DNA of 39,893 nt from a virus: UHGV virus genome UHGV-1364246; one strand, given 5' to 3'. Below, piece after piece: positions 1,146-39,692 of this stretch. The translations under genes were made by a program, and so were the position numbers. Every line of letters starts with the position of its first letter. Position 1 is the first letter of the stretch. The notes under the pieces were generated by a model. It was not told where the DNA came from. It saw nothing but the letters and a program-made list of their open reading frames with translations, and did not search any database.

Positions 1146-2030
1146 CTACAGGCTCGATGCAGCTACCTTAGCGCGAACTTCCATCGTGTATTTAGCGTCA
1201 CGCAGGTATCGCGGGTCACTCATAGCCTTAATCATGTCAGACTTGGAGCTGAATGCTTCGGTCTGAGGAGCCTTAGGTGCTACCACAGGTTTAGCCTGAG
1301 TGGTGATGGTACGCTGAGGTTTAACACCTACAGCTTTACCCAGAGTCTTGCCAGCCAGATTCAGCAGAGCTTTGGTAGTCGCAATGTCCTTACGAACGAT
1401 AGCAGCTTCCAGTGCCTCACGAGTTGACGGGTCGGTTGACTCAAGGTGAGAAAGGATGCGGTTAAACTGTTCAGCTCCACCAGCGTAGCGAACCACTCCA
1501 GCAGCATACTGTTCAGCCAGTGCTTCCTGACCACGGACAAACGAATCTACGAAACGCTTGGTGTAACCTGCTTCCTGCAACTTAGCGTAGGATGCGTCAG
1601 ACAGCTTACCGTCCTTGGCGTATTCAGCCTTGATAGCGGTAATTTCATCAGCAGTGACCTTGCCAGCTTCCACAGCAGAAGACACCATGTCGTCGAATGC
1701 AGCTTCGTTTTCATCCAGAGCGGTGACACTTTCGGTCAGCTCTTTCGGTGCATCACCCAGTTCGATGAACTCAGGCTGCTCACCATCGTTCTCAGACTCT
1801 TCGTCATCGGACTCGTGGTCTTCTTCACCTTCAGCCTCTTCGACGTTCTCGTCTTCTTCGGTCGCCTCTTCGTTTTCGGCTTCCAGTTGCTTGAAGGTAA
1901 TAGCGTCGTCACCATCACGAACAGCTACGTCCTGTTCAAGCATAGACTTTTGGTGTTCGTTCAGGTCCTCAACGGAACCAGTGATTGCATTAGAGCTAAC
2001 GCCGAACTCGGCATAAACTGATTGAGACAT
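1146..2030 (-). CDS. Scaffolding protein (gp9-like), acidic
   Basis: ATG at 2028-2030 with AAGGAGA upstream; MSQSVYAEFGV... aligns with the T7 gp9 N-terminus; highly acidic; C-terminal MIKAMSDPRY motif conserved. The ORF-track start at 2069 is a GTG extension. Confidence 0.85.
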   Translation of the reverse strand: MSQSVYAEFGVSSNAITGSVEDLNEHQKSMLEQDVAVRDGDDAITFKQLEAENEEATEEDENVEEAEGEEDHESDDEESENDGEQPEFIELGDAPKELTESVTALDENEAAFDDMVSSAVEAGKVTADEITAIKAEYAKDGKLSDASYAKLQEAGYTKRFVDSFVRGQEALAEQYAAGVVRYAGGAEQFNRILSHLESTDPSTREALEAAIVRKDIATTKALLNLAGKTLGKAVGVKPQRTITTQAKPVVAPKAPQTEAFSSKSDMIKAMSDPRYLRDAKYTMEVRAKVAASSL

Positions 2031-2060
2031 TGAGTCGTTCTCCTTTAAGTCGTTAATAGG

Positions 2061-2182: not shown

Positions 2183-3746
2183 CTTGAGCCATGTCCTCAC
2201 CAGCTACTTGTCCAACAGTAGCGCCCATGTTAGCACCAGCAGCAGACGCACCGTTGACCACAGCTCCTTGAGCGGATTGTTCTGCCATACGTTGCAACTT
2301 CTCGTCCTGAGTCAGCAGCAAACCGGCAGTGTCAATACCTAAGGCATTCAGCAGTCGCAGCTTCAGGGTAGGCAAGTTAATGTCTGGGTCCTGTTGCAGA
2401 GGCTGTAGCCCGGTCATCATGTTTACTGCCTGAGTCAGCTTCTCTAAGTCTTGACCACGACCTAACGCTTCCAGACCAGTGGATACCGTAGGCTCTACTG
2501 CTTCTTTCGGAAGGTCAGGAATCATGCCAGCAGACTGAAGCTGGTTCATCAGTACACGGACGATAGGTAACTGAAGCTCTTGTGACTGCACTGAGTACAC
2601 GCCACCTAAGGTCGCCTCCAGTTCGCCAGCAACATAACGAATCTCTTCAGCAGTGACTCGCTCGGCATTACGCTGAACAGCACTATTAAGAAGGAAGGCC
2701 CAACCTAAACGTTGCTCGATAGCGTCAGCCACCGACTTAGCAATCGTAAAGTCCTGACCTTTCGTCAGTTGCAGGAAGTTGATGTCCTCAACTCGACCAG
2801 CCACGAACTCACCTGTAGCCGCCTTGTTCAGACGTCTAGGTTGCGTGATACCGTTCGGGTTAACGAGGCCCACCACCTTGGAGGCTACCTTAGCCATTTT
2901 GGTGATAGCTTCTGTAATCGTCTCCAGCGAGTTCAGGTCTCCCAGATACTCCTCGCAGTAAGAACGACCGTAGTCTTCACCATCCAGTCGAACCATTCGT
3001 ACCGGGATGTATGGACATGCAGTCAGCGGGTAGGAACCATCGGTCCCTGCCACCTCAATACCTTCCACTTCCTCGTAGCGAAGATACTCGTCGTCCTGAC
3101 GGTAGATGTGCGTATACACTTCAAGCTCGGTGTCAGGCTCATAGTCGTCTGCGTTGAGTTGAGACTTCACGTCTTCCGGTAGAGCACTAAACGCTACCTT
3201 GTCGAGAGTCACAATCTGCAAGATGTTACCGAACGCATCACGTTGAACAACGTAAGACACTAAGCGGTACATTCGCATTGGACTGTAGGTTCCTTGTTCT
3301 GGAGGAGGGATGTAGAGCAGACAGTTACCTGAGACGATAAGCTGCTTCAAAGCCTCAAACAATGGGACACGGAAACTGTTAGTCTCCATGTAGGCCATCA
3401 ACACACGCTCGACCATAGCCAGCCCTTCGTCAACACGAGCAGCCGCCTCTGAGTCCTGACTCAAGGTCTTGGCCTCATATTCGGAGACTGTCAGTCGCAT
3501 CCACGGTGACTGAGGGAATAACGCCAACATCAGCTTTGCAGCCAAGTTGTTCAAGCAGCGAGCACCCACAGCTTGCCACGGCGTCACGTATTCCGTAGAC
3601 GAGTTGTCGGACTCCTTAGGAAACAGTGACGGGATAGTGACAGCCGCACAGTTCTGAGCGCGCGTCTCATATGGCTGTCTACCGTTCTTCAGTCTGTCAT
3701 AAACTGCCTTCGCGCCTTCAGCAGCAAATCCTTCACGTTCAGCCAT
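2178..3746 (-). CDS. Portal (head-to-tail connector) protein, gp8-like
   Basis: 522 aa; MAEREGFAAEGAKAVYDRLKNGRQPYETRAQNCA... closely matches recalled T7 gp8. Confidence 0.9.
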   Translation of the reverse strand: MAEREGFAAEGAKAVYDRLKNGRQPYETRAQNCAAVTIPSLFPKESDNSSTEYVTPWQAVGARCLNNLAAKLMLALFPQSPWMRLTVSEYEAKTLSQDSEAAARVDEGLAMVERVLMAYMETNSFRVPLFEALKQLIVSGNCLLYIPPPEQGTYSPMRMYRLVSYVVQRDAFGNILQIVTLDKVAFSALPEDVKSQLNADDYEPDTELEVYTHIYRQDDEYLRYEEVEGIEVAGTDGSYPLTACPYIPVRMVRLDGEDYGRSYCEEYLGDLNSLETITEAITKMAKVASKVVGLVNPNGITQPRRLNKAATGEFVAGRVEDINFLQLTKGQDFTIAKSVADAIEQRLGWAFLLNSAVQRNAERVTAEEIRYVAGELEATLGGVYSVQSQELQLPIVRVLMNQLQSAGMIPDLPKEAVEPTVSTGLEALGRGQDLEKLTQAVNMMTGLQPLQQDPDINLPTLKLRLLNALGIDTAGLLLTQDEKLQRMAEQSAQGAVVNGASAAGANMGATVGQVAGEDMAQA

Positions 3747-4149
3747 CTACGTGCCTCCATGTTTTACCTGTTAATACGTCAGACAGCGTTCTCCTGGCTA
3801 CTCCCGGATATGCAGAGGTAAGCTCTGTCGCTGTTAGCCCTGACTTTCGTATGGACTTAACATCTTCGGTTGTTAGCTTGGAGTTGTAATGGCTGTCACT
3901 ATGTGGAGCGTTCTTTCTACCTTTGGAAACACAGTCTACCATGTTATCGCTATAAGTACCAACGCTCAGGTGTTCGGGATTGACGCATAGTCTATTGTCG
4001 CAGGAGTGCATCACCACTAGACCTTCTGGTATGGGACCTTTGTGTTTTAGGTAGGACACTACATGCGCTCCACGTAGCTTACCTGCATACCACTTCAGTC
4101 CATATCCAGCATTATTTACGCAGCCCTTATGCAGTATGCAGTCTGTCAT
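3739..4149 (-). CDS. HNH endonuclease (T7 gene 7.7 position)
   Basis: 136 aa; HKGPIPEGLVVMHSCDNRLCVNPEHL HNH motif. Confidence 0.7.
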   Translation of the reverse strand: MTDCILHKGCVNNAGYGLKWYAGKLRGAHVVSYLKHKGPIPEGLVVMHSCDNRLCVNPEHLSVGTYSDNMVDCVSKGRKNAPHSDSHYNSKLTTEDVKSIRKSGLTATELTSAYPGVARRTLSDVLTGKTWRHVDG

Positions 4150-6808: not shown

Positions 6809-7104
6809 TGCTTGAACCTCACAGTAGCTGGTGAGACACTGAAGAACTCTGCGTCTGAATACTCCTGTACAGCCTCTTTAATCATTGACCGGAAGCTGTC
6901 ACGCAGAATAAACTCAATCACTGCGTCCATACCTTCCGTCAGCCACAGGGTCAGCATATGGCGCTGCTTAGCGTCTGGATTGATTTCACCTGAGTGAACG
7001 CCTTTAGCCAGATCTCGCAGACCCTTAATGATGAATTCCTCTTGGTCTGTAGGAAGTACAGCCTTAAGGTTGAAACTTACGATAGCGCGTTTGGTCATAG
7101 CCAT
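6805..7104 (-). CDS. gp5.5-like protein (H-NS-binding protein in T7)
   Basis: ATG at 7102-7104 (TAATG overlap with DNAP stop, AAGGAG upstream); MAMTKRAIVSFN...SPATV resembles T7 gp5.5. The ORF-track start at 7122 is an extension. Confidence 0.75.
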   Translation of the reverse strand: MAMTKRAIVSFNLKAVLPTDQEEFIIKGLRDLAKGVHSGEINPDAKQRHMLTLWLTEGMDAVIEFILRDSFRSMIKEAVQEYSDAEFFSVSPATVRFKQ

Positions 7105-9272
7105 TAGTGACACTCCTTCCACGTTGGTCCAATCTTACCTTCGGTATCAAGGACACATTTAAAGTTATAGAACTCACCCACCTTACGCATAGCAAGTTGA
7201 GCAATCCTGCGAATATCTTCGGCAATCTCCATGTTCCGAGCTGCAATCTGCAATTCGTCGTGGACCCATGCCATGTACGCAAAGTCTCCTTCCCAGCCGT
7301 GGACATACCCGGCCTCTTCGAGCATACGTTCAGTCTCTACAATCCAGTGCTTACAGACTACCGCACCATCGCCCTGAAGTAATGCGTTCAGTGCTGAGTG
7401 TGGAGACCGTATGTGGATACGTCGACCATCAAGTCCACGCAACCAACGGCGTTTCCACTTAACGATGTTCTCACCATCTACCCACTTAGAGTCTGATATT
7501 AACGTATTACTCACAGCTTCCCTGAGGTCCTTGATGGCTGGTGTACCCTCAATGAATTTCTTCATGAGAGCTGAACCTTCCTTCTTACCACCGCCGACTA
7601 TCAGTCCAATCTTAGCGGCCCCTGCACCATACAGGAACGCATAGATGAACGTCTTAGCGTTGTTGCGGAAAGCATCATGGTCGTGGCTCGACTTATCGCG
7701 TGGGACGTTAGGTGCTAACCCAGCGTTGACTGCGTTTGCCCAGTGGATGTCACCTTCGACTACAGTCTTCGCATATGCACCACCATCAAACGGAGCCGCT
7801 CGGTTCCCTAGACAACGAAGCTCAAGACCTGAAGCATCCACGCCTACTTGAATCCAAGGGTCTGGCTTGCCATCCTTCTTGTTCCACGCTGCACCGAAAG
7901 CACCACGGCAAGTCTCACCATATGGAGCACCGTTAGCCGGGACCTGAGCCATGTTTGGTGAGCTATGGGTCGCACGTCCTGTTACTGCACCACAAGGGTT
8001 GATTGAACCGTGCATACGTCCGTCTGGACCCACAAGTTTCAACCATGCGTTCTTACCTTCAGCAGCCTGACCGATGCGCTTCTGGACCACAAGATACTCA
8101 CGGACCAACTCTACACAAGCCTGAGCCTCTGCGTCTGGTAACTTAACGTGTTCTAACGTCTCGTCATCGACTACAGGTTTCCCAGTGTCAGTGAAGTCCA
8201 CAGGCTCCCAACCACGCTCCATCAGGACTTTCGCTAAGTGGTCTCCGCTTCCCGGATTAAATTCAACGTAAGTGATTGGCGTGAATGGTGCTCCCTCCAT
8301 CGTGTCTCGCGTATCGAGTTCACAAGGTTCGAGACCTAATCGTTGAGCTTTGTTCTTCGGCTTCTTAAAGATGCCACCGACCTTAGGATACACGACCCTC
8401 GGATACTTCGGAAGGTCCTTACCTGTCCGTGGATGCCTGAAGAACTCCTTGCCTCCCTTTGGTGCATACCAGCTACCGAAAGTAGAGCGCAGCTTGTCCA
8501 GTAACTCCGCACGTTTGACAGTGAGTTCACGATATAAGCCTTCGACCATCTCGGTGTTCATCGGATAGCCGTTACGCTCCATCTTCGCACAGGTCCACGC
8601 AGCATCATGTTCCAGACGCAACGCATAAATCTGTTCGAAAGCGAACTGTTCAGACTGGAAGTAATACTTGTCAGTCAGGAACTTCTTGAACAATGCCAGT
8701 GTGACCACAACGTCCTGAACGTTATAGTCCAGCATCTCCTGAGACGGGAACAACCATTCGTCCCCAGCCTTATATTCGATACCTTCGGCCTTGCACTTGG
8801 CAACGTAATCGTGTTTGTACTCACCCTTCATCTCACCGAGACGATAGCCCCAAGCCTCAAGAGACTGGCGTCCCATCATCTTAGGCGGCAGACGTCCAGC
8901 TTTCACCGCGCCTATGTCTGAGAACTTAATGTTGGGATACATCAAGCGGCCCAGCACCAAGGTATCAATCATCTTGTGTTTCGGGAAGTTAAATCGTTTC
9001 CCAAAGTACAGACGTTTCAGCTTGTCAATAGCCGGGACGTCATAGTTGATACCATTGTGGAATACCAGCATACCATCAGGTGATGCGGCAATCTCTTCCA
9101 CTTTATGAACATACTCTTTGAAGCCACCGACGATACCAACCATCGGAGCTACCCCATACTTAAGGGTCTCATTCGACTCGGCGTTAATCAGGACCCCGCA
9201 GTGGAACTGGGAGACTGTATCAAGGAGACCGTTGGTCTCGATGTCAGACCCATATACGTTACTTAAGTCCAT
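7104..9272 (-). CDS. DNA polymerase (gp5-like, family A with 3'-5' exonuclease)
   Basis: 722 aa; MDLSNVYGSDIETNGLL... exo motif; syntenic; size close to T7 gp5. Confidence 0.92.
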   Translation of the reverse strand: MDLSNVYGSDIETNGLLDTVSQFHCGVLINAESNETLKYGVAPMVGIVGGFKEYVHKVEEIAASPDGMLVFHNGINYDVPAIDKLKRLYFGKRFNFPKHKMIDTLVLGRLMYPNIKFSDIGAVKAGRLPPKMMGRQSLEAWGYRLGEMKGEYKHDYVAKCKAEGIEYKAGDEWLFPSQEMLDYNVQDVVVTLALFKKFLTDKYYFQSEQFAFEQIYALRLEHDAAWTCAKMERNGYPMNTEMVEGLYRELTVKRAELLDKLRSTFGSWYAPKGGKEFFRHPRTGKDLPKYPRVVYPKVGGIFKKPKNKAQRLGLEPCELDTRDTMEGAPFTPITYVEFNPGSGDHLAKVLMERGWEPVDFTDTGKPVVDDETLEHVKLPDAEAQACVELVREYLVVQKRIGQAAEGKNAWLKLVGPDGRMHGSINPCGAVTGRATHSSPNMAQVPANGAPYGETCRGAFGAAWNKKDGKPDPWIQVGVDASGLELRCLGNRAAPFDGGAYAKTVVEGDIHWANAVNAGLAPNVPRDKSSHDHDAFRNNAKTFIYAFLYGAGAAKIGLIVGGGKKEGSALMKKFIEGTPAIKDLREAVSNTLISDSKWVDGENIVKWKRRWLRGLDGRRIHIRSPHSALNALLQGDGAVVCKHWIVETERMLEEAGYVHGWEGDFAYMAWVHDELQIAARNMEIAEDIRRIAQLAMRKVGEFYNFKCVLDTEGKIGPTWKECH

Positions 9273-9664
9273 GTTTCTCCTCCAATTGCTCTAGCCAGTG
9301 TGCGGTGACCCACTCCATACTTCTTACCTAAGGAGCGGTGAGTCCAGCCACCTCCTGCGTAAAGCACCTTGGCCTCTTGTACTATTTCAGGTGTAAGCTT
9401 ATAGCTTCCATGTCGCACGCCTTTAGCGGTTCGACCTCTAACGTCTCTATCGTGATTGTTCTCAGCCCTTGTCCCCAGCTCCAAGTGTTCTGGATTGTAG
9501 CACGCTGGGTTGTCGCATTTGTGCCTCACGACCATTCCCTCTGGTATCGGACCATTCGCCTCCTCGAAGGCTATCAGATGCAGTCTACGGACCTTCCCGT
9601 TGACCTTTCGCATACCGTAGCCGAAACTATCTCGACACCCGGTCCACTCAATGCAATCAAACAT
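9263..9664 (-). CDS. HNH endonuclease
   Basis: ATG at 9662-9664 with GGAGGA upstream; GPIPEGMVVRHKCDNPACYNPEHLELGTRAENN HNH motif. The ORF-track start at 9700 is an extension. Confidence 0.7.
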   Translation of the reverse strand: MFDCIEWTGCRDSFGYGMRKVNGKVRRLHLIAFEEANGPIPEGMVVRHKCDNPACYNPEHLELGTRAENNHDRDVRGRTAKGVRHGSYKLTPEIVQEAKVLYAGGGWTHRSLGKKYGVGHRTLARAIGGETWT

Positions 9665-12393: not shown

Positions 12394-12874
12394 TGTACAC
12401 CACCAATTCTACGACCACCAGATTCAGGTGCTGGGTGAAGCGCTGTGCATCCGTGGTGTGCATCTGGAGGCGCTTATGGTTGAAGACGTGTGAGTTGCTA
12501 ATCTTCACGTAAACTTCGTCAGGCTTGCCGTGGACGATGAACGTCTGGCCTACACCAATCTTGTCGATTGTCAGGACCTCACGCTTCACAGTCACAGGCG
12601 GTACGCTCGAAGCTGGCAGGACTTGAGTGGTCTGTACACCAGTGAGTTTCTCTTCCGGCTTGATTTCCTCAAGTTCATGAGCATAGACCCATGCTCCCCA
12701 CATACCATCAGGCTGAGTATCATACCCGGCCGAACCATGCTTAAACGTACCGGGAGTTGTGGACTCTACGAGTACATAGTCCATGGATGGCCACTGGTCT
12801 TGCTCACACTTAGTAACGATAGTCCCACGAGGCCAGCCACACGTAGCTACTGACAGTTTAAACTTCTTGCTCAT
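12383..12874 (-). CDS. Hypothetical 163-aa protein inserted between endonuclease I and lysozyme (no T7 counterpart)
   Basis: ATG overlaps the gp3 stop (ATGA); its 3' end overlaps the gp3.5 start by 11 nt; SD AAAGGAG upstream. Confidence 0.6.
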   Translation of the reverse strand: MSKKFKLSVATCGWPRGTIVTKCEQDQWPSMDYVLVESTTPGTFKHGSAGYDTQPDGMWGAWVYAHELEEIKPEEKLTGVQTTQVLPASSVPPVTVKREVLTIDKIGVGQTFIVHGKPDEVYVKISNSHVFNHKRLQMHTTDAQRFTQHLNLVVVELVVYNGK

Positions 12875-13326
12875 TTCTTAACTCCTTTCTTCTTGGGGAT
12901 GAGTATACCTGAAGGCAGACGTACAGTCGACTCTCGAAGCCACTCAACCGGAATGAATTTATCGGCATACTTATAGCCGTTCTTTTCGCACCATGCGCCA
13001 TACGTGGTTGGAGACCCTTTGTATAACTTGGAGCGTGAACTTGAGAACACGAACCGGATGTCTAACTCTGGGTGCTGTTCTCGTACCAGAAGGTGCTTCT
13101 TACGGTCATCACTATCGAAGATACCTTTGGTCTCCACGATGATGCCGTTGGGAAGGATAAAGTCTGGTGTGTACTTGTGGTCGGAAGCCGGAATCACATA
13201 GTTGATATAATGGCTTTCGTACTCCGCTTTGACGCCGTTCTGTTCCAGCCACTGCTGGTTCTTGGCTTCAAGTCCAGAGCGGTAGGCACCCACAGAGTGC
13301 CCCCGTTTTGCAGACCATTGGGCCAT
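12871..13326 (-). CDS. Endonuclease I (gp3-like Holliday junction resolvase)
   Basis: 151 aa; syntenic between SSB and lysozyme; PDF...ETKG core typical of T7 endonuclease I. Confidence 0.85.
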   Translation of the reverse strand: MAQWSAKRGHSVGAYRSGLEAKNQQWLEQNGVKAEYESHYINYVIPASDHKYTPDFILPNGIIVETKGIFDSDDRKKHLLVREQHPELDIRFVFSSSRSKLYKGSPTTYGAWCEKNGYKYADKFIPVEWLRESTVRLPSGILIPKKKGVKK

Positions 13327-14024
13327 TAGAAGTCGTAATCGCCACCAGAGCCGGAGTCGTCACCACCTTCGGAACCATCGTCACCGAAGTCATCAGACCC
13401 GAAGTCACCATCGGTTGACGCTTTGTAGCCAGTACCAAGGTCTTCATCATCACCCCAGCCACCATCGCCACCAGCACCATCGCCCTTCCACTCCTTCAGT
13501 TCTACCAGAAGGCAGGACTCAAGCTGGAGCTTAACGCTTGCACCAGTCGCAGCGTTCCACTTGAACGGCAGGACTTTGAACTTGACCTTCAGCTTAGACC
13601 CAGCGCCAATATTCGGGACGTCACGGATGAGTTTAGCATCAGTGTCGTAGAACCGTAATACGATAGGCTCGGACTTGCCGTCTTTCAGGTAAGACGCAAA
13701 GCATTTAAACTTCAGGGTAACAGTACCGTCACCGTTCTCAATCCACGGCATATCGCCTTCACGCGGCTCGATAGGCTTCTTGCCACGCTGAACCTGAGGT
13801 GGGTTCTTCTCGTGGTCTGCGAGTGCTTTCGCATACGCATCGTCGTGAATCTTCTGTAAGACATCGATCATCTTACGGACCTTCGGGTCATCAAGACTGA
13901 AAGTCAGGTTAACCTTATGCTCACCACGCTCGTTAAACTTGGTGTCTGCTTTGTTCAGCCATGCGTAAGGCTCAACGATACCAGCTACCGGAGTGGTGAA
14001 AGTCTTCAGTTGCTCTTTAGCCAT
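13326..14024 (-). CDS. Single-stranded DNA-binding protein (gp2.5-like)
   Basis: 232 aa (same as T7 gp2.5); acidic C-terminal tail ending DYDF. Confidence 0.88.
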   Translation of the reverse strand: MAKEQLKTFTTPVAGIVEPYAWLNKADTKFNERGEHKVNLTFSLDDPKVRKMIDVLQKIHDDAYAKALADHEKNPPQVQRGKKPIEPREGDMPWIENGDGTVTLKFKCFASYLKDGKSEPIVLRFYDTDAKLIRDVPNIGAGSKLKVKFKVLPFKWNAATGASVKLQLESCLLVELKEWKGDGAGGDGGWGDDEDLGTGYKASTDGDFGSDDFGDDGSEGGDDSGSGGDYDF

Positions 14025-14063
14025 CGGTGTAAATCTCCTAATTTAAAGTTACGAACTGGACGT

Positions 14064-14086
14064 CTGTCCTACAGTGATAGTTTAGG
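14064..14086 (-). promoter_or_regulatory. Phage RNAP promoter (phi2.5-like), CTGTAGG variant
   Basis: Minus-sense CTAAACTATCACTGTAGGACAG; overlaps the gp2 stop codon. Confidence 0.65.
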
Positions 14087-14240
14087 TCTCAGGACGAATC
14101 CGTCCAACCACAAACCCAGCGTCCTCATACTCTTGGGACTTCAGGGTAGCCTCTTCAAGAGACTTTGCGTACACCGGAACATCGAAGGACTGAACGCGAC
14201 CCTCAAGCTCCACGATGTATTTCTTCTCAACCTCAGTCAT
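14082..14240 (-). CDS. Host RNA polymerase inhibitor (gp2-like), 52 aa
   Basis: Translated by hand (under the ORF-track size cutoff): [52 protein letters not shown]; resembles recalled T7 gp2 (SFEVPIYAETLDEA...AGFEVTRVRP). Confidence 0.7.
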
Positions 14241-14318
14241 AGACCGCGCTCCTTCCATTGGTTATATAACGTAATGTAGTCCGGGTTGAGAGTCTTCTCA
14301 TACATCTCCCGGCACCAC

Positions 14319-14762
14319 TCACTCGGCAGCATAGCACTTACCTTTATGCAAGTCGAACAGCTCCTGATAGAAGGCTGCTTTGTTCAGGTCCTTCTCCATA
14401 GTAGCCAGCTCTGACTTCTTGCCAGCCCGGAGTCGATATTTAAGAACGTTACCCATGCAGAACCCACGGAACTCGCTGACAGTCATGGACCGAGCGATAA
14501 TCTCAATGGACTCAATGCCATCAAAGACCTGATAGTGCGACGGTTTACGGACGCTGTCTTCCTGACCTATTGTTGTCTGCTCGGTCTGCTCCTGATTGGT
14601 AATTTTTAAGGCACTAGAGGAGTGAATGACTGGTTCAGATAAACCGGGCCACTTAACAACAACTATGTGCCCCTTTCTAACCATAATCACCTTGCCACAG
14701 GAGAGTCCCATGTAGGCTATAATTAGTCCAACATATTTAACTGTATCCCCCACCTTAATCAT
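14319..14762 (-). CDS. gp1.7-position protein (possible nucleotide kinase homolog), function uncertain
   Basis: 147 aa; syntenic only; no motif confidently recognised. Confidence 0.35.
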   Translation of the reverse strand: MIKVGDTVKYVGLIIAYMGLSCGKVIMVRKGHIVVVKWPGLSEPVIHSSSALKITNQEQTEQTTIGQEDSVRKPSHYQVFDGIESIEIIARSMTVSEFRGFCMGNVLKYRLRAGKKSELATMEKDLNKAAFYQELFDLHKGKCYAAE

Positions 14763-15015
14763 TGACCACCTCCTTTACGAACTCAACGAACAGACGAACT
14801 CTGGGCCACTTAGTGTAGACCACGGGCACATTGGTCTCACACTTCTGGCGGGCCTCTTCAGCTTTGCCAGGAGTAATCAGCGCGAAGACTGTAGGTGATA
14901 ACTTAACTGCCTTCCCGAAGTAGCCCAGCTTCTCGTTGCGCTTAATGCAAGCGAACGGGTTGTTGGACAGGTGTAAGGTATTGGAATAACGGTTGAACAT
15001 TAAGTTCTTAGACAT
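14755..15015 (-). CDS. gp1.6-position hypothetical protein
   Basis: 86 aa ORF downstream of a phage promoter; size matches T7 gp1.6. Confidence 0.4.
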   Translation of the reverse strand: MSKNLMFNRYSNTLHLSNNPFACIKRNEKLGYFGKAVKLSPTVFALITPGKAEEARQKCETNVPVVYTKWPRVRLFVEFVKEVVND

Positions 15016-15039
15016 AGAGTCTCCTTAGGTTGTTGATGG

Positions 15040-15062
15040 TTGTCCTATAGTGATAGCTTAGG
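15040..15062 (-). promoter_or_regulatory. Phage RNAP promoter (phi1.5/1.6-like), AAGC variant
   Basis: Minus-sense CTAAGCTATCACTATAGGACAA. Confidence 0.7.
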
Positions 15063-15082
15063 GTCTAGCTGGTGGCACAGAA

Positions 15083-15115
15083 GCAAAGAAACCCAGCAGT
15101 CCTAAGACCACTGGG
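15083..15115 (-). terminator. Putative early terminator (TE-like) for host RNAP
   Basis: Minus-sense CCCAGUGG-UCUUAGGA-CUGCUGGG hairpin followed by UUUCUUUGC; sits where T7 TE lies relative to the ligase. Confidence 0.5.
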
Positions 15116-15121
15116 TTGACG

Positions 15122-15583
15122 TTATAATGAATCTCTTAAGGCTACTGCCTCTGCTATGGTATCTAACGTACCGTATGACTTACGCTTTATCCGCAGTTGC
15201 CAGCGACCAGTCCTTGGCTCAAAGTTAACGTACTTCTCACCAGACTTGCAGTGGCTACGGACGGCGACGTTTGTCAGGTTCACTGCCTGAGTTACACACC
15301 TTAGGTTCTCAATTCGGTTATCAGAAGGGTCTCTGTTTATATGGTCAATAACCATTCCTTCCGGTATCTTACTGTGAGTTAGTTCCCAGACTACCCGGTG
15401 TGCAAGGATCTGACCTTTGGTTGTGTTTATAATCCAGTAGCCATCCTTGCGTCGATAGCCTAAGTGTTTACCCTTCAGGTTGGCGACTCCCGAAGGAGCC
15501 GTCCGGTCAACCTTAAATCTTGACTGTAGGATTGTCCTCAGTTCCTCGCCACTGGTCGAATGACGGATGTCGCAAACTTCCAT
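15122..15583 (-). CDS. HNH endonuclease with AP2-like DNA-binding region (free-standing homing-endonuclease-like)
   Basis: 153 aa; HRVVWELTHSKIPEGMVIDHINRDPSDNRIENLR; ATG at 15581-15583 with GGAGGAG upstream; 5' end overlaps the last 71 nt of the ligase gene. Confidence 0.75.
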   Translation of the reverse strand: MEVCDIRHSTSGEELRTILQSRFKVDRTAPSGVANLKGKHLGYRRKDGYWIINTTKGQILAHRVVWELTHSKIPEGMVIDHINRDPSDNRIENLRCVTQAVNLTNVAVRSHCKSGEKYVNFEPRTGRWQLRIKRKSYGTLDTIAEAVALRDSL

Positions 15584-16574
15584 CTGGTGTCTCCTCCATG
15601 TAGGTAATCTGACAGGCCCACCCTTTGTAGTAATCTGGGTCTGACTTTACGTTCTCTGTGAACTCGGACATAAGGGCGCGACTAATGTTAGTTGCGGAGA
15701 CCTCCATCCCGTTCTCAAGCATAACGTCGAAACCAATTACTAGACCTTCGTTGGCGAGACCTTCGGTTCCCCATACTGGTCTAACAACGTGACCATCCGC
15801 CTCTTCGCTTGGCTTCATTTTCCACATGCCTGACTTCTTGCCACGCTTGTATTTACCCAGTGGGTCCTTGACTACCAGACCCTCGTGTCCTTCCAGACGC
15901 TTCTGTTCGTACAGGGAGTTGAGCGACTCAAGGTCATAGACCGTGTGTGACTCAGACAGAACCCAGTCGATTTCCGGGAAGTATTTCTGGAGGAGAGGGA
16001 CGATAGCTTCGGCCTTCAGGCGTGTGACGCTATGGATAGGACCTTCAGCTTTCGGGTCGTTGATGACGTTAAGGTCAACGATACCGTAGACAACCACGCG
16101 GATGTGGTCGGTTGCCAGATGGAAAGGGACCTTATGCTTCTTCTTGGTGTCTATGTCAGCATCGGGGTTGCCATTCCAAGCGTAGTTCTTAGTGTCTGAC
16201 CACACGGTACGGACTAGACCTGAGGAAGTGTTGAAGTCGGTTGCAGGAACCATGACCTCACCATCTATCATCAGGCCAGTGCCTTCGTAGCCAGCTTGCT
16301 TCAGGAACCATAGCCAGTCAGACGCATTGAATGGGTGAGGGTCTGCTACCTTATAGTCTCCTGCTGAGGTTGACAACCAGCTCAACGCTGGAAGCTCTTT
16401 AGACTCACGGCTTAACCATTTGGTCTCACCAGTTGGGAAGACCGGTAGGTTCAACCGGACACCATCGTACTTCACTTCAGCTTCCAGAGACCCAGCAGCT
16501 TCCAAAGCCTTCTTAACGCCAGACTCAGAGTAATCTACAGCTCGGTGCGGGTTGGTTTTGATAGTCGTAGTCAT
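15513..16574 (-). CDS. ATP-dependent DNA ligase (gp1.3-like)
   Basis: 353 aa; adenylation motif EVKYDGVR; syntenic. Confidence 0.9.
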   Translation of the reverse strand: MTTTIKTNPHRAVDYSESGVKKALEAAGSLEAEVKYDGVRLNLPVFPTGETKWLSRESKELPALSWLSTSAGDYKVADPHPFNASDWLWFLKQAGYEGTGLMIDGEVMVPATDFNTSSGLVRTVWSDTKNYAWNGNPDADIDTKKKHKVPFHLATDHIRVVVYGIVDLNVINDPKAEGPIHSVTRLKAEAIVPLLQKYFPEIDWVLSESHTVYDLESLNSLYEQKRLEGHEGLVVKDPLGKYKRGKKSGMWKMKPSEEADGHVVRPVWGTEGLANEGLVIGFDVMLENGMEVSATNISRALMSEFTENVKSDPDYYKGWACQITYMEETPDGSLRHPSFDQWRGTEDNPTVKI

Positions 16575-16825
16575 TATTTCCAGCTCCTATAAGCATTCAG
16601 TTGCTGTAAGCACCATTGCTCACAGTTAAAGATTTCGTGTTCGGTAAACTCGCGGGAGACCAGAGGCTTCCCACCGTCTGCTTCAATGATGCGGACCAGC
16701 GTTGTGCGGGAGCATGGTAGGTCATCCATTCGGACCTCAAGTCCTGCCAAGCTCATCTCGCGGTGTGTCCGGCCCAACGATGACCACTGGCTCGTGGACG
16801 CATCAAATAACCAACGTCTGCTCAT
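16574..16825 (-). CDS. gp1.2-like protein (dGTPase inhibitor in T7)
   Basis: 83 aa; ends ...AYRSWK like T7 gp1.2 (...DWK); syntenic. Confidence 0.65.
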   Translation of the reverse strand: MSRRWLFDASTSQWSSLGRTHREMSLAGLEVRMDDLPCSRTTLVRIIEADGGKPLVSREFTEHEIFNCEQWCLQQLNAYRSWK

Positions 16826-16828
16826 GCC

Positions 16829-17008
16829 TTATGCTCCTACGAAGTATTTCTCTTGGTTTACCATAGAGTCTTTGCCTTCAGCGTTACGGAAAGCACCCTT
16901 GACACCACCGCCACGCTTGGTCTTGTTCAGCTTGCGGCCCTTCGGAATGTAACCTTCAGTCTTCTGACGTTCACGGATGCGCTCGAAGTTGATAGTGTTC
17001 TGATACAT
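16829..17008 (-). CDS. gp1.1-like small basic protein, 59 aa
   Basis: Translated by hand: MYQNTINFERIRERQKTEGYIPKGRKLNKTKRGGGVKGAF...; GRKLNKTKR motif as in T7 gp1.1. Confidence 0.65.
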   Translation of the reverse strand: MYQNTINFERIRERQKTEGYIPKGRKLNKTKRGGGVKGAFRNAEGKDSMVNQEKYFVGA

Positions 17009-17040
17009 GTGGTTAAATCTCCAGTAGTTTACGTTATGTT

Positions 17041-17089
17041 AGGGTTAATCATGAAGGCCACGACTCTGAGTCATGACCTTGAGTCTAAT
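17041..17089 (-). ncRNA. RNase III processing element (R1.1-like) between the promoter and gene 1.1
   Basis: Second copy of the ATCATGAAGGCCAC...ATGACCTTGAGTCTA element. Confidence 0.6.
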
Positions 17090-17108
17090 CCTATAGTGAT
17101 AGTTTAGG
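17086..17108 (-). promoter_or_regulatory. Phage RNAP promoter (phi1.1-like)
   Basis: Minus-sense CTAAACTATCACTATAGGATTAGA. Confidence 0.75.
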
Positions 17109-17183
17109 GTTAACCTCTTCTGCGTTGGATTAAAGTGAATACTGCGAGTGCTCCCAGCCACAGGGCCAGTAACTGTAGGTCTG

Positions 17184-17384
17184 TCATTTGGTTGCCGCCT
17201 CTTTAAGGGCTTGCTCGTGCATCAGCTCCACCTGCTTAACCAGCCACTTGAATTTGACGTTAAGCTGCTTTGACATCTCGGTAGGAATGACCGTGGTCTT
17301 CACCAGACCCTTGCTGTTGTGTTCTGTTACGGTCACAATTTGAGTCCCACCCTTAACGCCAGTCTGCTTGTGTGCAAATTTCAT
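17184..17384 (-). CDS. Hypothetical 66-aa Lys-rich protein immediately downstream of the RNAP gene
   Basis: ATG at 17382-17384 with AGGAGAGAGAG upstream; no T7 gene at this position. Confidence 0.5.
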   Translation of the reverse strand: MKFAHKQTGVKGGTQIVTVTEHNSKGLVKTTVIPTEMSKQLNVKFKWLVKQVELMHEQALKEAATK

Positions 17385-17398
17385 AACTCTCTCTCCTG

Positions 17399-20080
17399 TT
17401 AAGCGAATGCAAAGTCTGAAGACAAGATGTCTTCGATATTCAGTTTACCTTTCTTCGGAAGCTCAGGCAACTTGTCGCGCTGACTCTCGTGAAGCTGGTA
17501 TTCGAACTGCTCGTAGAAGTCAAGCAGTACATCGTTGTCGCGGTAGGTCTCGACCATTGTCTCACGGACGCCACGGAACAGATACTCAGCGTCAGCCGGG
17601 ATGGTCCCGAAGCTATCGTGAATCACTGCGAATGACATCACACCATACTTGCGGTGCGTGTGGACTACAGTCTTGCGGAGGTGGCTGCCATCTTGTGAGT
17701 GGACGAAGTTCGGGCTAATGCCTGACTCCTGCTTGTGCTTGTCTAGCTCTTTCTTCGTGCCTTTGTTGACTGTAGGCTGAAGGTTGAATGACCCTAAGAA
17801 CATCAGGTTCAGACGAGTGGTATCCTTCTTGCGGTATTCCTGCCAGACCGGGAAACCATCAGGTGTGACCCAGTGTACTGGAAGGCAAGGCTTCAGGATT
17901 TCACCAGTCTTCTTGTCCTTCACTTCAGCAGCCAGCAGCTTGGCAGCACCTTGAAGCCACTTCATCGCGTCAACCGCAGCAACTACGGTCACACTCACAG
18001 CTTCCCAAATCATCTTAGCCATGAAGCGAGACGCTTGTCTTGGTTCAGTGAACATAGAGCCAGACCCTGAGTCAATCGCTGGCATCACGATGTCCTCGTA
18101 CACTTGGTCTGCGAATCCGTACTCTTTCGACCCGTAGGCCAGAGTCATGACCGAACGCTTAGTTACCTTGCGTGACATGCCGTAAGTCAGCCACTGCCTG
18201 GCCAGCTCTCGTGTCCCCAGCTTGAGGCGCTCGGTAATCTCACCAGTTTTCTTATCCTCGTGAGTCACCATCTCGTTGTCCGTACCGTTAACCAGCAGGA
18301 CTTTAAGCTCCTCCTCAATGCGGTCAGACACGATGCGGTAGATGTCTTGGACCTTACCGGAAGGCGTCAGGTTTACTGCATGTCCACCTATGTGGTCTCG
18401 AAGCATCGCGCTGAAGTGCTGAATCCCAGAGCAGGACCCATCGAAAGCTATCGGCAGCGAGCAGGAGTAAGACAAACCGTGGTGCATTACGCCAGCATAC
18501 TCGAAGCAGAACGCTAGGAAGCAGAACGGAGAGTCTAACTTACCCCACCACTCAATGCTGTCCATCGGTGCCTTAGCGGTAGCCATGATGTTGTCGTGGT
18601 TGTCTTCCACCCACTTGATGCGCTCCTCGAAGGTGACTTTATCAATACCCGCACAGTTTGCACCGTGGACCTTCAGCCATTTGAAACCATCAGCACCAAT
18701 AGGCTTACCGACTGCCAGAGTTAGGAGACCCTTCTGCATGTCGTTACCCTGAGGGTTGAACATCGGCACAGCGTAGACGCGACCACGCCAGTCCATGTTG
18801 TACGGGAACCAGATGGCCTTGAACTGAGAGAACTTGTTCGCTTGGTTAACGATAAAGCTCAGCGACAATCTGCGTGACTGTCGGGCCTTCTCTCGGCGGT
18901 AGATACCAGCAGCAGCCTTCTTCCATTCCTTGAGTTCCTCTTCAGTCTCACCCGCATAGTCTTCAGGCTTCAGCGGCTCCATCTGAGGGATGTCATCAAT
19001 AGGCGTGTTGTTCAACTTCTCTACCATGTTCACCACGTCCAGAACCTTCTTGTTCACCTTCCAAGGCGTATTCTGGATGATATTCACAGCGTCATAGACT
19101 TCAGGCATGTACACGTCTTCATAACGTGCCACCGCAGACTTAGACCCTAAGCGAATCAGTGGTAGTGGTCTGCGACCTTTGGCCCAGTACCCACCTCCTA
19201 CGACACCAGTCCACGGCTTAGGTGGAACGACACAGGGCTGGTAGACTGGAGCGATACCCGCAAGGCTGAATCCTCGTTGTGCCATCTTCTTGACCCAGAA
19301 GTCTGACAGGTGGACCATCTCGACATCAGCCGCTGCATTGCCAGCACCGTAACGCTTAAGCTCGACCAGTTGTGTTGACTGGATGACAATCTCAAGCATC
19401 TTGATTCCAACGTGGACAGCCTCGGTCGGACTCCAAGTTCCCCACGCATCTTCAAGTTGGCCTTGCTCCAGCATGGAGGTCTCAACAGCTTGCATGTAGG
19501 CTTTTTTGTAGGATGCCCCGGCGCGCTTGTTCAGGTTCTCAGCTATCGCCTTCTTGAAGTGCTCCTTCTCCTTATCACGGATGCGACCGAAGCGGATTTC
19601 ATCCTCAAGTGTGCGACCTATCGCGGAGGCCATCGGTGTAATCGGTATCCCTTCAGGCTTGACCAGCTTGGAGAGGATGACCTTCAGTATGATGACCGCA
19701 GCAGACTCACAGGAGATGCGCAGAGAGCGGTCCTTGACGGCCTTCTCTTCAGTGCTCAACATGGTGAACGCTACGCTAGGACGAGAGGTTGACAGCTTAC
19801 CGTCTGGACCTTCGTGCCACTCCTTGACGGCTTGCGCAATCTTAGGGACCAGAGTCTGCATCAAAGGCTTGGCGACCTGATTGTCTGCCAGTTCCCCGCG
19901 CTCAGTCTGTCGCTCAAGGTTCTTGATGAAACGTCGCTCGCCTTCAGTGTATGCCTCATGCTCAAGCTGAAGCTGTTTGACTGCAAGGTCTTGCCCGTAG
20001 TGGTCAGCCAGCAGGTTAAACGGCTCAATGGCGTTCGACACATCAGAGAAGTCGTGTTTGTCAATAGAGATGACGCTCAT
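17399..20080 (-). CDS. DNA-directed RNA polymerase, single-subunit (T7 gene 1-like)
   Basis: 893 aa; collinear with recalled T7 RNAP (PYNMDWRGRVYA, DGSCSGIQHFSAMLRD, HDSFGT, C-terminal FAFA); specificity-loop region reads LMFLGSFNLQPTVN versus T7 LMFLGQFRLQPTIN. Confidence 0.97.
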   Translation of the reverse strand: MSVISIDKHDFSDVSNAIEPFNLLADHYGQDLAVKQLQLEHEAYTEGERRFIKNLERQTERGELADNQVAKPLMQTLVPKIAQAVKEWHEGPDGKLSTSRPSVAFTMLSTEEKAVKDRSLRISCESAAVIILKVILSKLVKPEGIPITPMASAIGRTLEDEIRFGRIRDKEKEHFKKAIAENLNKRAGASYKKAYMQAVETSMLEQGQLEDAWGTWSPTEAVHVGIKMLEIVIQSTQLVELKRYGAGNAAADVEMVHLSDFWVKKMAQRGFSLAGIAPVYQPCVVPPKPWTGVVGGGYWAKGRRPLPLIRLGSKSAVARYEDVYMPEVYDAVNIIQNTPWKVNKKVLDVVNMVEKLNNTPIDDIPQMEPLKPEDYAGETEEELKEWKKAAAGIYRREKARQSRRLSLSFIVNQANKFSQFKAIWFPYNMDWRGRVYAVPMFNPQGNDMQKGLLTLAVGKPIGADGFKWLKVHGANCAGIDKVTFEERIKWVEDNHDNIMATAKAPMDSIEWWGKLDSPFCFLAFCFEYAGVMHHGLSYSCSLPIAFDGSCSGIQHFSAMLRDHIGGHAVNLTPSGKVQDIYRIVSDRIEEELKVLLVNGTDNEMVTHEDKKTGEITERLKLGTRELARQWLTYGMSRKVTKRSVMTLAYGSKEYGFADQVYEDIVMPAIDSGSGSMFTEPRQASRFMAKMIWEAVSVTVVAAVDAMKWLQGAAKLLAAEVKDKKTGEILKPCLPVHWVTPDGFPVWQEYRKKDTTRLNLMFLGSFNLQPTVNKGTKKELDKHKQESGISPNFVHSQDGSHLRKTVVHTHRKYGVMSFAVIHDSFGTIPADAEYLFRGVRETMVETYRDNDVLLDFYEQFEYQLHESQRDKLPELPKKGKLNIEDILSSDFAFA

Positions 20081-20506: not shown

Positions 20507-20932
20507 TTAATTCTCCTGAAGATATTTGAGTGCGCTTGCCAGAAGCTCTGGCGAATCTTTAAATTTTCCTAGACCAATGTTACACGATGCACACAATAAA
20601 CCTCGCACCTTTCCAGACTTATGACAGTGGTCTACGGCTAACCTTCTACCTGTCTCACAAGCACTACCGCAGATTTTGCACCCACCGCCTTGACCTTCCA
20701 GCATGGTAGTATATTCACCCTCCGTTATTCCATACCTAGACCTCAGGTGATAGCCTCTCTCCGTGCTTCGTGCTCTTTTCAATGAGTCGCCATTCCTGTG
20801 TTGTGACGTAACGACCGATGACACTTGACAGGGCTTGCAATATGTCTGTAGTCCGTCCCGCCTAGCCTTGTTCCTGCCAAACATAGTAGCATCCTTAGTC
20901 TCTCCACATTTGGCGCAGGTCTTTTCCATCAC
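20507..20932 (-). CDS. Endonuclease VII-family (HNH-like) protein with N-terminal zinc ribbon
   Basis: 141 aa; CAKCG...CKPC zinc ribbon, then LAVDHCHKSGKVRGLLCASCNIGLG, typical of the Endonuclease_7 family. Confidence 0.65.
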   Translation of the reverse strand: MMEKTCAKCGETKDATMFGRNKARRDGLQTYCKPCQVSSVVTSQHRNGDSLKRARSTERGYHLRSRYGITEGEYTTMLEGQGGGCKICGSACETGRRLAVDHCHKSGKVRGLLCASCNIGLGKFKDSPELLASALKYLQEN

Positions 20933-23664: not shown

Positions 23665-25428
23665 TTAGTGGAACGTAACGTAGGACCCTAGTCCTAGCTC
23701 GTCGTCCGTATCGTGCGTTACCCGGACCCCATTGTCCCAGAACTCAGTGTGGATGGACTCGAATCCTTTCCGTGGGTTCTCCATCTGTTCCTCCAGCCAC
23801 TCCTCAGTGACTTCACGTTCGCCTTTGTTGGCATCCTTAGCCATAGACTCAACGAAGAACTGTACACCGATAGCCAGCGCATCAAGTCGGTCATCGTGTG
23901 CCAAGGCGCCACGTTCACGAGATATACGTGTCATCTGGTAGAAGAGAGAGTAGATAGGGTTACGAACACCATCCTTATCAGAGGCTGACTGGTAGTCTTG
24001 GACGATAGCAGCAGCGTTTACGATAAGTCGGTGAGACCCCATGATAGGCTCCAGAACGTCACAGATGCGTAGTTCTTTCTGACCCTTACTCTTCACTTCA
24101 GTTACAGCCGCAGGATGAATACGGGCAGCTACAGGCTTGAATAGCTCAAGGTACATACCATCACCGAAGTTACCCTCAATGACGTATTCGTTAACCTTCC
24201 ACTTACGACCAATCTTAGCCAAGGCTTCCAGCGTAGAGTCTTCATAGCCACCACGCATACCACCAACTTCCATAGCGAAGATGTAGCCGTTGAGCTGGTA
24301 CAGTACCGCATAGCCAGTTTCATCCTTACCACGACCACTAGGGTCAATGACCAGAATCTTCTGGGTGTACGAACTGAAGGCAGAACCTACAGTCTGATAC
24401 GTGTGGTATGAGTCACCCATGAGTCCAACGTTAGGAACGTCCTCACGCTTGTTCTGAGGGTTAGGCAACCATTGGTAGACCATTGGGCTGGACGCTGGGT
24501 CCAAGTCTGCTACGATAAGGTCACGGAGCTTCAGAGGGTACTTCTCGGCATCACTCAGGTTCGGGTTAAGCATGAACTGTAGAGCGAAACCAGCTTTACC
24601 GTACGACAACTCGCGTTCCTTCAGGTCCGTATCATCGAAGCGTACTTCATCAGTCGGACGCCAGTAGAAGGACTCAGGGTCCTCTTCCAGCTCTGCCTGA
24701 AGCATAGGAGCCAGACGGTCGCCGTAAGACTGCCAGTCCTTCCTGTCGCGTGGATAACGAGCGGGCCAGATAGTAGTGGTGTACCCACGACCTTCCAGCT
24801 CACGATACAGGGTCATCTCGTTCTGAGGAGTACCCAGATAGATGATTGTACCTCCCGGCTTCAGGATAGCGTCGAATTCTTTCACAAGCTCTGACAGACG
24901 GTCACGCGCAGCCTGAGTCGCTGAGTTGTTCGGAACTTCCACGTCATCGGCAATCAGGATGTCAGCACGACTACCAGTCAACTGACCAGTGATACCAACG
25001 GACTTAACCGAAGGTGAGTGGTCCGGCTTGGCTGGCCCAACATCAAAGCTGATAACCGCATCTCGTTGTCCCTGCTTAGGTTTGAGTTCCTGAAGCTGAG
25101 GCATGAGGTCGATGATTCGCTTGATGAAGATGGAGTTCGCATCGGCTCGTTCCTTTGAGGCCGACACAATCATGAACTTCAAGTCTGGGTTGTTCCATAA
25201 CTTCCAGACAACGAAGGCACACGTAATGAAGGACTTCCCTATACCACGGAACGCCTGTAGAATGAAGCGCCTGTTGTCCCCAGCCGATAGTTTCTTCGCC
25301 ATGTCAATCTGACAGCGAGTCGGGACCGGGAGTGACAGAGCTTTCCACAGGACGAACAGGAAGAACACGAAGTCTGACTTCATACGTGCAGTCATTAGCG
25401 CCTGACGCGCCACTAAGTCTTTACTCAA
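23665..25428 (-). CDS. Terminase large subunit (gp19-like)
   Basis: 587 aa; [28 protein letters not shown]...[18 protein letters not shown] (Walker A) closely matches recalled T7 gp19; apparent TTG start with AAGGAGGT 8 nt upstream. Confidence 0.93.
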
Positions 25429-38880: not shown

Positions 38881-39108
38881 TTAAATCATACTCATTAGGA
38901 CATATCCCTCAGCGATGTCACCAACGTCAGCAATGTGGACAACCTTACGTGCTACCTGTTGTCCAGTATACCCGTTGTCCCACTCATTCAGGATAAGCCA
39001 GTCGCCAACCTTAAAGTCCCGGTCGTTAAGTCTCAGCTCTGCTGTCTTTAGACCTAGTTGTACCGGACCAAAGTGCTGGCGGTGAATCTTCAGGTTGTGA
39101 CTAGCCAT
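38881..39108 (-). CDS. Small PUA/ASCH-like protein (DUF3850-like) inserted between tail tube A and B genes
   Basis: 75 aa; HNLKIHRQHFGPVQLGLKTAELRLNDRDFKVGDWLILNEW resembles the DUF3850 pattern; ATG overlaps the gp11 stop (TAATG) with GGGAGGGA upstream. Confidence 0.55.
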   Translation of the reverse strand: MASHNLKIHRQHFGPVQLGLKTAELRLNDRDFKVGDWLILNEWDNGYTGQQVARKVVHIADVGDIAEGYVLMSMI

Positions 39109-39674: not shown

Positions 39675-39692
39675 AAGTCTCCTCTCACTTTA

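Follow-up and report, generated by a model that had tools for sequence, protein, structure and literature searches.

Gene 1.45 of Yersinia phage phiYeO3-12, a member of Teetrevirus, lies behind the DNA ligase gene and overlaps its 3' end (ligase 6933-7973, gene 1.45 7903-8376; overlap 7903-7973, 71 nt), and in the literature searched we found no functional study of its product, gp1.45 (cleavage, target site, or homing). Phage T7 has the ligase gene and then the early terminator TE with no gene between them (ligase end 7554, TE at 7588), as the sequence-only reading of the present DNA had stated, and its small HNH_3-matching genes 3.8, 5.3, and 7.7 are scattered between essential genes. I-HmuI of Bacillus phage SPO1 is a site-specific nicking enzyme that targets the insert-free allele; it is encoded inside a group I intron and has a long C-terminal DNA-binding extension. 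In T4-like phages, MobE is a free-standing HNH gene between conserved genes and is sporadic among relatives. The spread of free-standing HNH genes of T4-like phages is ascribed to cleavage of the neighbouring conserved gene and co-conversion of the flanks (PMC2790892). Mobility was reportedly demonstrated by experiment for MobE, whereas we infer it for the gene 1.45 family.

We analysed a virus genome of 39,893 nt (UHGV-1364246; this whole stretch is referred to as the window), which appears to be complete at about 39.9 kb and, going by gene order, to be given in permuted, reverse-complement form. The sequence-only reading had proposed a 153-aa HNH gene starting 71 nt inside the ligase gene in another frame, and an open reading frame with these properties was recovered (Table 1). 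All genes of the region were on the minus strand, and the HNH gene was flanked by the ligase gene and a gene 1.6 homologue. The overlap comprised codons 1-23 and two bases of codon 24 on the HNH side, and the last 22 sense codons, the stop codon, and two further bases on the ligase side. The gene had also been said to end 7 nt before a TE-like terminator; this distance holds if counted from the last sense codon, whereas the stop codon (15124-15122) is separated from the stem by 4 nt.

Table 1. Positions of the features discussed, in the numbering of the window
Feature	Position	Strand	Description
HNH_3 gene	3739-4149		Pfam match; full length in 8 records by megablast
HNH_3 gene	9263-9664		Pfam match; full length in 8 records by megablast
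T7-type endonuclease I	12871-13326		Ordinary in such phages; outside the nuclease count of the sequence-only reading
Phage-RNA-polymerase promoter core CTATCACTATAGGA	15043..15056	-	Downstream of the terminator, upstream of gene 1.6
Early-terminator-like hairpin	15080..15117	-	AACCCAGTGGTC-TTAG-GACTGCTGGGTT, then TCTTTGCTTC
Segment missing from empty-site relatives	15121..15512	-	392 nt in place of the 6 nt CTAAAY
HNH endonuclease gene, gene 1.45 type	15122..15583	-	ATG start, 153 aa; AP2-like tail at about residues 113-152
Internal hairpin	15484..15501	-	CGGCTCC-TTCG-GGAGTCG; inside HNH codons 28-33, just past the ligase stop
HNH/ligase overlap	15513..15583	-	71 nt, different frames
ATP-dependent DNA ligase, T7 gene 1.3 counterpart	15513..16574	-	353 aa; Pfam DNA_ligase_A_M and DNA_ligase_C
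Shine-Dalgarno-like GGAGGAG	15591..15597	-	7 nt upstream of the HNH ATG; putative ribosome-binding site
Endonuclease_7 gene	20507-20932		Pfam match; no close DNA match; best full-length protein matches among those listed about 52%

Family and predicted fold of the HNH product

The HNH product was searched by tblastn, and the closest copies were found in phiHAO1-1 and vB_EclP_26 (96.7% identity), PE3-1 and JSS1 (94.8%), and CLB_P1 (93.5%). The JSS1 record annotates the gene as 'HNH homing endonuclease', and CLB_P1 names it gene 1.45, 'similar to phiYeO3-12 gp1.45 endonuclease'. Identity to phiYeO3-12 gene 1.45 itself was 66% over residues 1-152, and ligase-overlapping copies at 59-67% identity were present in T7-like phages of Klebsiella, Shigella, Erwinia, Serratia, and Dickeya. 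With the shared position and overlap, these matches mark the gene as an ortholog of gp1.45, within the Studiervirinae gene 1.45 family. The gene type is already known, since the family has long been annotated in GenBank phages and near-identical copies have been deposited at the same locus, and the gene is ordinary for its phage group, Kayfunavirus.

The product matched Pfam HNH_3 (PF13392) at residues 60-102 with 70.8 bits (E 7e-20; cut-off 24.8 bits) and PHROG 99 'HNH endonuclease' (E 4e-41), and I-HmuI (1u3e, E 3e-4) was the only solved structure found by sequence. In the alignment, D80, H81, N93, and N102 stood opposite D74, H75, N87, and N96 of I-HmuI, which are reportedly, in the paper describing that structure, the general base with its metal-binding neighbour, a structural Asn, and a metal-binding Asn. 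D80, H81, N89, N93, L94, and R95 were invariant across a 36-member family alignment, and N102 was nearly so. Degeneracy of the HNH motif, which the sequence-only reading had named as counting against an active nuclease, was not found, D80, H81, N93, and N102 all being intact. An AF2 model built on the 36-homologue alignment reached a mean pLDDT of 87.5, and its best fold match in the PDB was again 1u3e (Foldseek, E 8.8e-4, probability 1.00; 90 columns at 33% identity), with the His-Me nuclease I-PpoI next. Alignment and model together predict an HNH nuclease of the I-HmuI type (beta-beta-alpha-metal). The likeness to I-HmuI covers the nuclease core, with Asp-His, Asn, and Asn at equivalent positions; unlike the intron-encoded enzyme, the window gene is free-standing between two genes and its AP2-like tail is only about 40 residues long.

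The label AP2-like, which had been given to the product beforehand, held in part. Pfam AP2 (PF00847) was sought in the HNH product even at E<=10 and no match was obtained. However, many homologues (35-45% identity) carry PF00847 aligned onto the same C-terminal stretch, and the tail in the model has the corresponding topology, with strands at 119-122, 127-132, and 135-140 followed by a helix at 143-152. Foldseek matches to AP2 structures were weak (7wq5, probability 0.57; 3igm, E 4.7). Because of the homologues' PF00847 and these weak fold matches, AP2-like is a reasonable label for the C-terminal 40 residues.

Two other HNH genes and an Endo VII-family gene had been listed with the present one, and Pfam assigned the former to HNH_3 and the latter to Endonuclease_7. 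All three are also sporadic, which fits the earlier suggestion of homing-endonuclease traffic. The two HNH_3 genes, like T7 genes 3.8, 5.3, and 7.7, are small and scattered between essential genes. The products of these two genes and of the T7 genes are only 20-25% identical to the gene 1.45-type protein. They have neither its N-terminal region nor its AP2-like tail, the latter being replaced by a helix-turn-helix-like one, and their insertion sites differ from the ligase-terminator slot. A terminase-associated HNH of the HK97 gp74 type was considered and rejected, as the gene lies in the early region, far from the terminase gene (23665-25428), and its family is I-HmuI-like HNH_3.

Signals for transcription and translation

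The translation signals of the HNH gene coincide with ligase codons. GGAGGAG is formed by the Met-Glu-Glu codons of the conserved ligase motif YMEETPDG, and the HNH ATG comes from the Asp-Gly codons GAT GG; the ligase codons ATG GAG GAG ACA CCA GAT GG (M-E-E-T-P-D-G) hold both signals, read in the alternative frame. As for transcription, CTATCACTATAGGA was present in 10 minus-strand copies versus 0.21 expected by chance. Upstream of the copy ahead of gene 1.6, the next one was at 17089-17102, ahead of the ligase operon. No phage promoter was found between 17089 and the HNH gene, and no sigma-70-like promoter in 14000-17000. A promoter of its own was rejected for the HNH gene on both counts, and the gene would therefore be co-transcribed with the ligase gene, inside the early unit. 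An Rfam search of 14000-17500 at E<=1 returned nothing.

Downstream of the gene, a pattern scan found a terminator-like 12-pair stem (15117..15090, minus strand) followed by TCTTTGCTTC, with a predicted fold of -19.5 kcal/mol. The hairpin was conserved in relatives and lay directly 3' of the ligase gene in empty-site genomes. With its U-tract, it has the sequence features of an intrinsic (rho-independent) terminator and is a putative early terminator TE.

The internal hairpin had no U-tract after it in the window. Its 16-nt core, GGCTCCTTCGGGAGTC, is identical to a sequence within gene 1.45 that carries the annotation 'putative early terminator TE' in the phiYeO3-12 record. It also resembled the TE stems of T7 (GGCTCACC-TTCG-GGTGGGCC) and T3 (GGCTCACC-TTCAC-GGGTGGGCC), each of which is followed by a U-tract. 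Judging from this resemblance, the internal hairpin may be the vestige of a T7/T3-type terminator that the element brought along. The window and phiYeO3-12, like the other Kayfunavirus copies, agree in gene family and post-ligase position, and the two share the 71-nt overlap and the hairpin core just past the ligase stop. They differ further on: the phi1.5 promoter comes immediately after the phiYeO3-12 insert, and no TE other than the internal hairpin is annotated there, whereas the window has a separate terminator hairpin of Kayfunavirus type 3' of the gene.

Alleles and distribution at the ligase-terminator junction

We compared 25 loci around ligase relatives (IMG/VR) and ten annotated GenBank phage loci. 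Alignment from the ligase end to the start of gene 1.6, combined with a hairpin scan, yielded four allele states. The occupied allele of type A, with 394 nt from ligase stop to hairpin, was found in the window, phiHAO1-1, PE3-1, CLB_P1, PH1061, and vB_EclP_26; the last carried the same type A gene with a downstream hairpin unmatched by the scan. Twelve loci, including Baskent_phicoli_1, were clean empty alleles consisting of the ligase TAA, CTAAAY, and the hairpin (8 nt by the same measure), so that the terminator hairpin of these relatives lies 6 nt past the ligase stop. L009 and RDN8.1 were occupied by a second HNH type (type B, 415 nt), the core of which was only 49% identical to type A, with the first 26 and last 12 residues the same. 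In two further loci, L010 and L014, 39 nt remained between ligase stop and hairpin, consisting of about 11 nt resembling the insert start and 25 nt of the insert end; the latter agreed with the last 25 nt of the CLB_P1 HNH gene at 24 of 25 positions. By this alignment the two remnants appear to be deletion products, the gene having been lost at least once.

Comparison with insert-free relatives, which the sequence-only reading had put forward as a check, gave clean empty sites at the same junctions, with 392 nt in the window versus 6 nt. The 71-nt overlap stretch was also found in relatives without the HNH body. A similar pair is formed by T3, which has the empty allele (ligase stop, TE, phi1.5 promoter), and phiYeO3-12, which has the occupied one; here too the insert starts at the ligase stop codon, and the right junction differs. 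Members of the family occupied this junction in Teetrevirus, in Kayfunavirus, and in T7-like phages of Klebsiella.

The region was matched by 265 phage records, mostly of Kayfunavirus (K1F-like T7 relatives) infecting Escherichia, Salmonella, and Klebsiella. The full HNH gene body was present in 12 of the 265 (about ten distinct phages) and absent from all eight of the closest whole-genome relatives, the nearest of which in the collection was Escherichia phage Baskent_phicoli_1 (94.5% identity, with 84% of a 24-kb query covered). Presence throughout the lineage, the other finding that had been named as counting against the insert, was thus not observed. The nearest HNH copies were those of vB_EclP_26 (98.2% nt) and phiHAO1-1 (97.4% nt), neither of which is among the closest genomes. 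Identity of the window to these two phages was 95-100% from about 16100 to 15100, covering the ligase 3' half and the HNH gene, and 45-90% on either side of this block. The distribution of the gene is thus sporadic and incongruent with the phage genome phylogeny. Such a block of high identity could also arise by ordinary recombination, given the strong mosaicism of T7-like phages.

The ligases of all HNH-carrying relatives examined, with either HNH type, ended in '...TVKI', and these ligases of occupied alleles were without the 24-residue loop found in Baskent-type ligases. The remnants had the '...TVKI' end as well. This linkage fits co-conversion of the ligase end with the HNH gene, but it could also reflect common descent of one ligase lineage; it is not proof of co-conversion, because the clean empty alleles L011 and L013 share the haplotype. 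Import of the ligase 3' end with the gene from a T3-like donor was rejected, since TVKI is the Kayfunavirus form of the ligase end and the ligases of T3, T7, and phiYeO3-12 end in the QEKM/QEKV type.

Proposed homing and alternative readings of the locus

Located between the ligase stop and the putative early terminator, the gene stands free and probably encodes a homing-type HNH endonuclease of the gene 1.45 family. The sequence-only reading had described it as a free-standing HNH insert of homing type, and this is borne out by the intact motif, the non-universality, the empty sites, and the incongruence; the homing-endonuclease reading is supported because neither a degenerate motif nor universal presence was found. 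Like MobE, the gene stands free between conserved genes and is sporadic among relatives, in another phage group and beside other neighbour genes. Since no enzymatic or genetic test of the family was found in the literature searched, it is by inference from sequence that we ascribe specific cleavage and homing to the gene 1.45-type enzyme.

We propose the following course of events. The gene would be transcribed with the ligase gene, early transcripts of the host polymerase stopping at the downstream hairpin and phage-polymerase transcripts covering the gene beginning near 17100. Translation would start from the ATG and Shine-Dalgarno sequence inside the conserved YMEETPDG codons, giving a protein with a putative I-HmuI-like core (D80, H81, N93, N102) and a short, presumably DNA-binding AP2-like tail. 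In a mixed infection, the enzyme would nick or cut an insert-free genome near the ligase 3' end or at the ligase-terminator junction, a target that would be interrupted in the enzyme's own genome. Repair by recombination, with the HNH-carrying genome as template, would then place a copy of the gene, along with some flanking ligase sequence, in the recipient.

The start within the ligase gene bears on whether the overlap is used at all. If the protein started past the ligase stop, the overlap would be non-functional and an accident of an open alternative frame, which we consider very improbable. The annotators of CLB_P1 and PH1061 placed the start at ATGs past the ligase stop, equivalent to residues 36 and 28 of the window product, but these ATGs exist only in those phages, and between 15583 and Met77 the window offers none of the codons ATG, GTG, and TTG in frame. 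Met77 is three residues before D80-H81, and a start there would drop residues 35-76 of the conserved domain; the domain is thus retained by no canonical start other than 15583. The more distant homologues P0010, P0012, and P0015 have their starts some 19-20 residues further in, the model was of low confidence at residues 1-10, and the same frame was open in an empty-site relative, all of which would suit a late start. Yet the ATG at 15583 follows GGAGGAG at the spacing given in Table 1, it is the annotated start in phiYeO3-12 and is conserved in four close copies, and residues 13-22 form a confidently predicted helix. We take 15583 as the probable start. The private changes of the window copy raise a different question, namely whether it is a decaying or inactive endonuclease at a late stage of the homing life cycle, with an open frame but no cleavage. 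Four amino-acid changes set it apart from its four closest relatives (L59I, G71S, P72K, and F140L). At least 90% of the 36 family members keep G71, and F140 is the F of a conserved G-T-F in the AP2-like tail. The window branch had 5 non-synonymous private changes to 1 synonymous, versus 8 to 26 for L001, L003, and L004 pooled (L032 had none); the CLB_P1 branch had 5 and 19. The deletion remnants in relatives add that loss does happen. These counts are small, however, and a single event may account for three neighbouring nucleotide changes among them (GGTCCG to AGTAAG). Moreover, the reading frame has its full length, none of the four catalytic or metal-binding positions is altered, and the model folds with high confidence. 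We regard decay as improbable; the changes hint at relaxed constraint or a small functional shift in this copy, in small numbers and with the catalytic residues untouched.

It is also conceivable that the gene is kept as a nuclease or DNA-binding protein that benefits the phage, rather than or besides acting as a selfish homing element. Such a protein might exclude competing phages without the gene, or blunt a break-sensing host defence. Values of dN/dS between diverged type A copies were 0.05-0.16, indicating strong purifying selection on these copies as judged from codon changes, and the protein would be made from the first minutes of infection because its gene lies upstream of the early terminator. 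A preprint on HNH homing endonucleases and the GAPS4 defence also points this way, reporting that I-HmuI-like enzymes and the HNH homing endonuclease T7 gp3.8 weaken GAPS4 even when catalytically dead, and that one of these enzymes interferes with related phages (10.1101/2025.09.07.674715, preprint). On the other hand, about 95% of the related records, and every one of the closest genomes, are without the gene, and it has been lost by deletion at least once, a pattern unexpected for a generally useful gene; gp1.45 itself has been tied to no defence system. We consider a benefit to the phage unlikely as the reason for the gene's presence, and it would in any case be compatible with homing as the main explanation.

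The homing reading can be carried one step further, tentatively and with considerable doubt, to an element built for use with many T7-like ligase alleles, with a borrowed start and ribosome-binding site, a junction at the ligase stop, a recognition block, and a terminator remnant. The start and ribosome-binding site would then be not the element's own and would be supplied by the YMEETPDG codons read in the alternative frame (ATGGAGGAG...GATGG). The mobile DNA would begin exactly at the ligase stop in Teetrevirus and Kayfunavirus alike, and the enzyme would then most likely recognise the conserved block just upstream of it, CGAGGAACTGAGGACAAYCC. The T7/T3-like hairpin inside the gene would be what is left of a donor's early terminator, moved across genera.

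The finding leaves the understanding of T7-like phages and of HNH nucleases unchanged. What it adds is a series of alleles that includes remnants and an exchange of HNH type, the translation signals apparently borrowed from the ligase gene, and the internal terminator-like hairpin. The gene marks a site of gain and loss in Kayfunavirus, a therapeutically used phage group, and the ligase-terminator junction of insert-free relatives offers a concrete substrate for a widely annotated enzyme family. Together, the occupied, empty, swapped, and remnant alleles line up naturally as a tidy sequence of stages in the homing-endonuclease life cycle.

Alleles of the slot after the ligase gene

Among relatives, the slot between the ligase stop and the early-terminator-like hairpin, filled in the window by the gene 1.45-type HNH endonuclease, was found with altered contents in two forms. 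In two relatives' loci around the ligase gene (L010 and L014), the HNH insert was reduced to about 11 nt from its start and 25 nt from its end, with deletion end points identical in both; these short sequences are what is left of an endonuclease gene that has been lost. In two others (L009 and Escherichia phage RDN8.1), a divergent second HNH was 49% identical to the window type in its core, whereas the two types had the first 26 residues, which overlap the ligase, and the final 12 residues, encoded by the final 36 nt, in common. Since this HNH shares both ends with the window type and diverges in between, comparison of the sequences suggests that its core was replaced between conserved ends.

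The ligase C-terminal (OB) domain aligned in two haplotypes among Kayfunavirus relatives. The haplotype of the type found in Baskent_phicoli_1, the closest whole-genome relative in the collection, carried a 24-residue acidic, cysteine-containing loop that was absent from the window, from all HNH-carrying relatives, and from Yersinia phage phiYeO3-12. The 5' half of the ligase gene was mosaic separately from these C-terminal haplotypes.

Within the HNH coding sequence of the window, the 16-nt core of a hairpin was identical to the sequence annotated as a putative early terminator (TE) within phiYeO3-12 gene 1.45. This hairpin was similar to the TE stems of T7 and T3, but it had no U-tract.

The same HNH type was also present in GenBank MT350292.1, a typical Kayfunavirus with 84% identity to the enterobacterial phage region of the window. 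This record is titled 'Enterococcus phage EFA-1' with Enterococcus faecalis given as host, a label that looks doubtful.

Features of the window and of related loci (L009, L010, L014 and L034, loci around the ligase gene of relatives)
Feature	Position	Strand	Remark
HNH_3 gene	3739-4149	-	portal gene immediately downstream
HNH_3 gene	9263-9664	-	DNA polymerase gene immediately downstream
Hairpin with UUCG loop	15484-15501	-	within HNH coding sequence
Ligase OB-domain haplotype region	15650-15900	-	ligase codons about 225-310
Endonuclease VII-family gene	20507-20932	-	Pfam PF02945, E 3e-26
Promoter core copies	1125, 2163, 5372, 14067, 15043, 17089, 20153, 23551, 29194, 36470	-	
HNH insert remnant	L010:3529-3569		between ligase stop and terminator hairpin
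HNH insert remnant	L014:3526-3566		between ligase stop and terminator hairpin
Divergent second HNH	L009:3468-3950		same slot after ligase
Divergent second HNH	L034 (Escherichia phage RDN8.1), about 1560-2039		same slot after ligase

Other nuclease genes of the window

Both HNH_3 genes were distant from the gene 1.45-type protein, with 20-25% identity, and full-length copies of each were found in only 8 phage records. The one next to the DNA polymerase gene is the counterpart of the CR44b '7.7B predicted homing endonuclease', and its copy in the Kayfunavirus CLB_P1 was 99.5% identical. The Endonuclease VII-family gene lies in the early region with the RNA polymerase gene downstream. No close DNA match to it was present among 50,697 phage records, matching being limited to its last 36-47 nt, and the best full-length protein identity among the matches listed was about 52%, to IMM-002 and some Salmonella T7-like phages. 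This gene was rarer than the gene 1.45-type HNH.

Genome layout and phage promoters

At about 39.9 kb, the window seems to span an entire phage genome, given in reverse-complement orientation and apparently permuted, with its start near the capsid gene (ends 1-1043 and 39108-39893). There, the only long ORF listed (30-1043) runs on the plus strand, against the direction of all the other genes. It is probably an artefact, read antisense to a capsid gene that continues past the end of the window. The phage promoter core CTATCACTATAGG(A/G) occurred 10 times in the window, always on the minus strand, compared with 0.21 copies expected by chance; together these copies give a predicted map of transcription of this genome by the phage polymerase.
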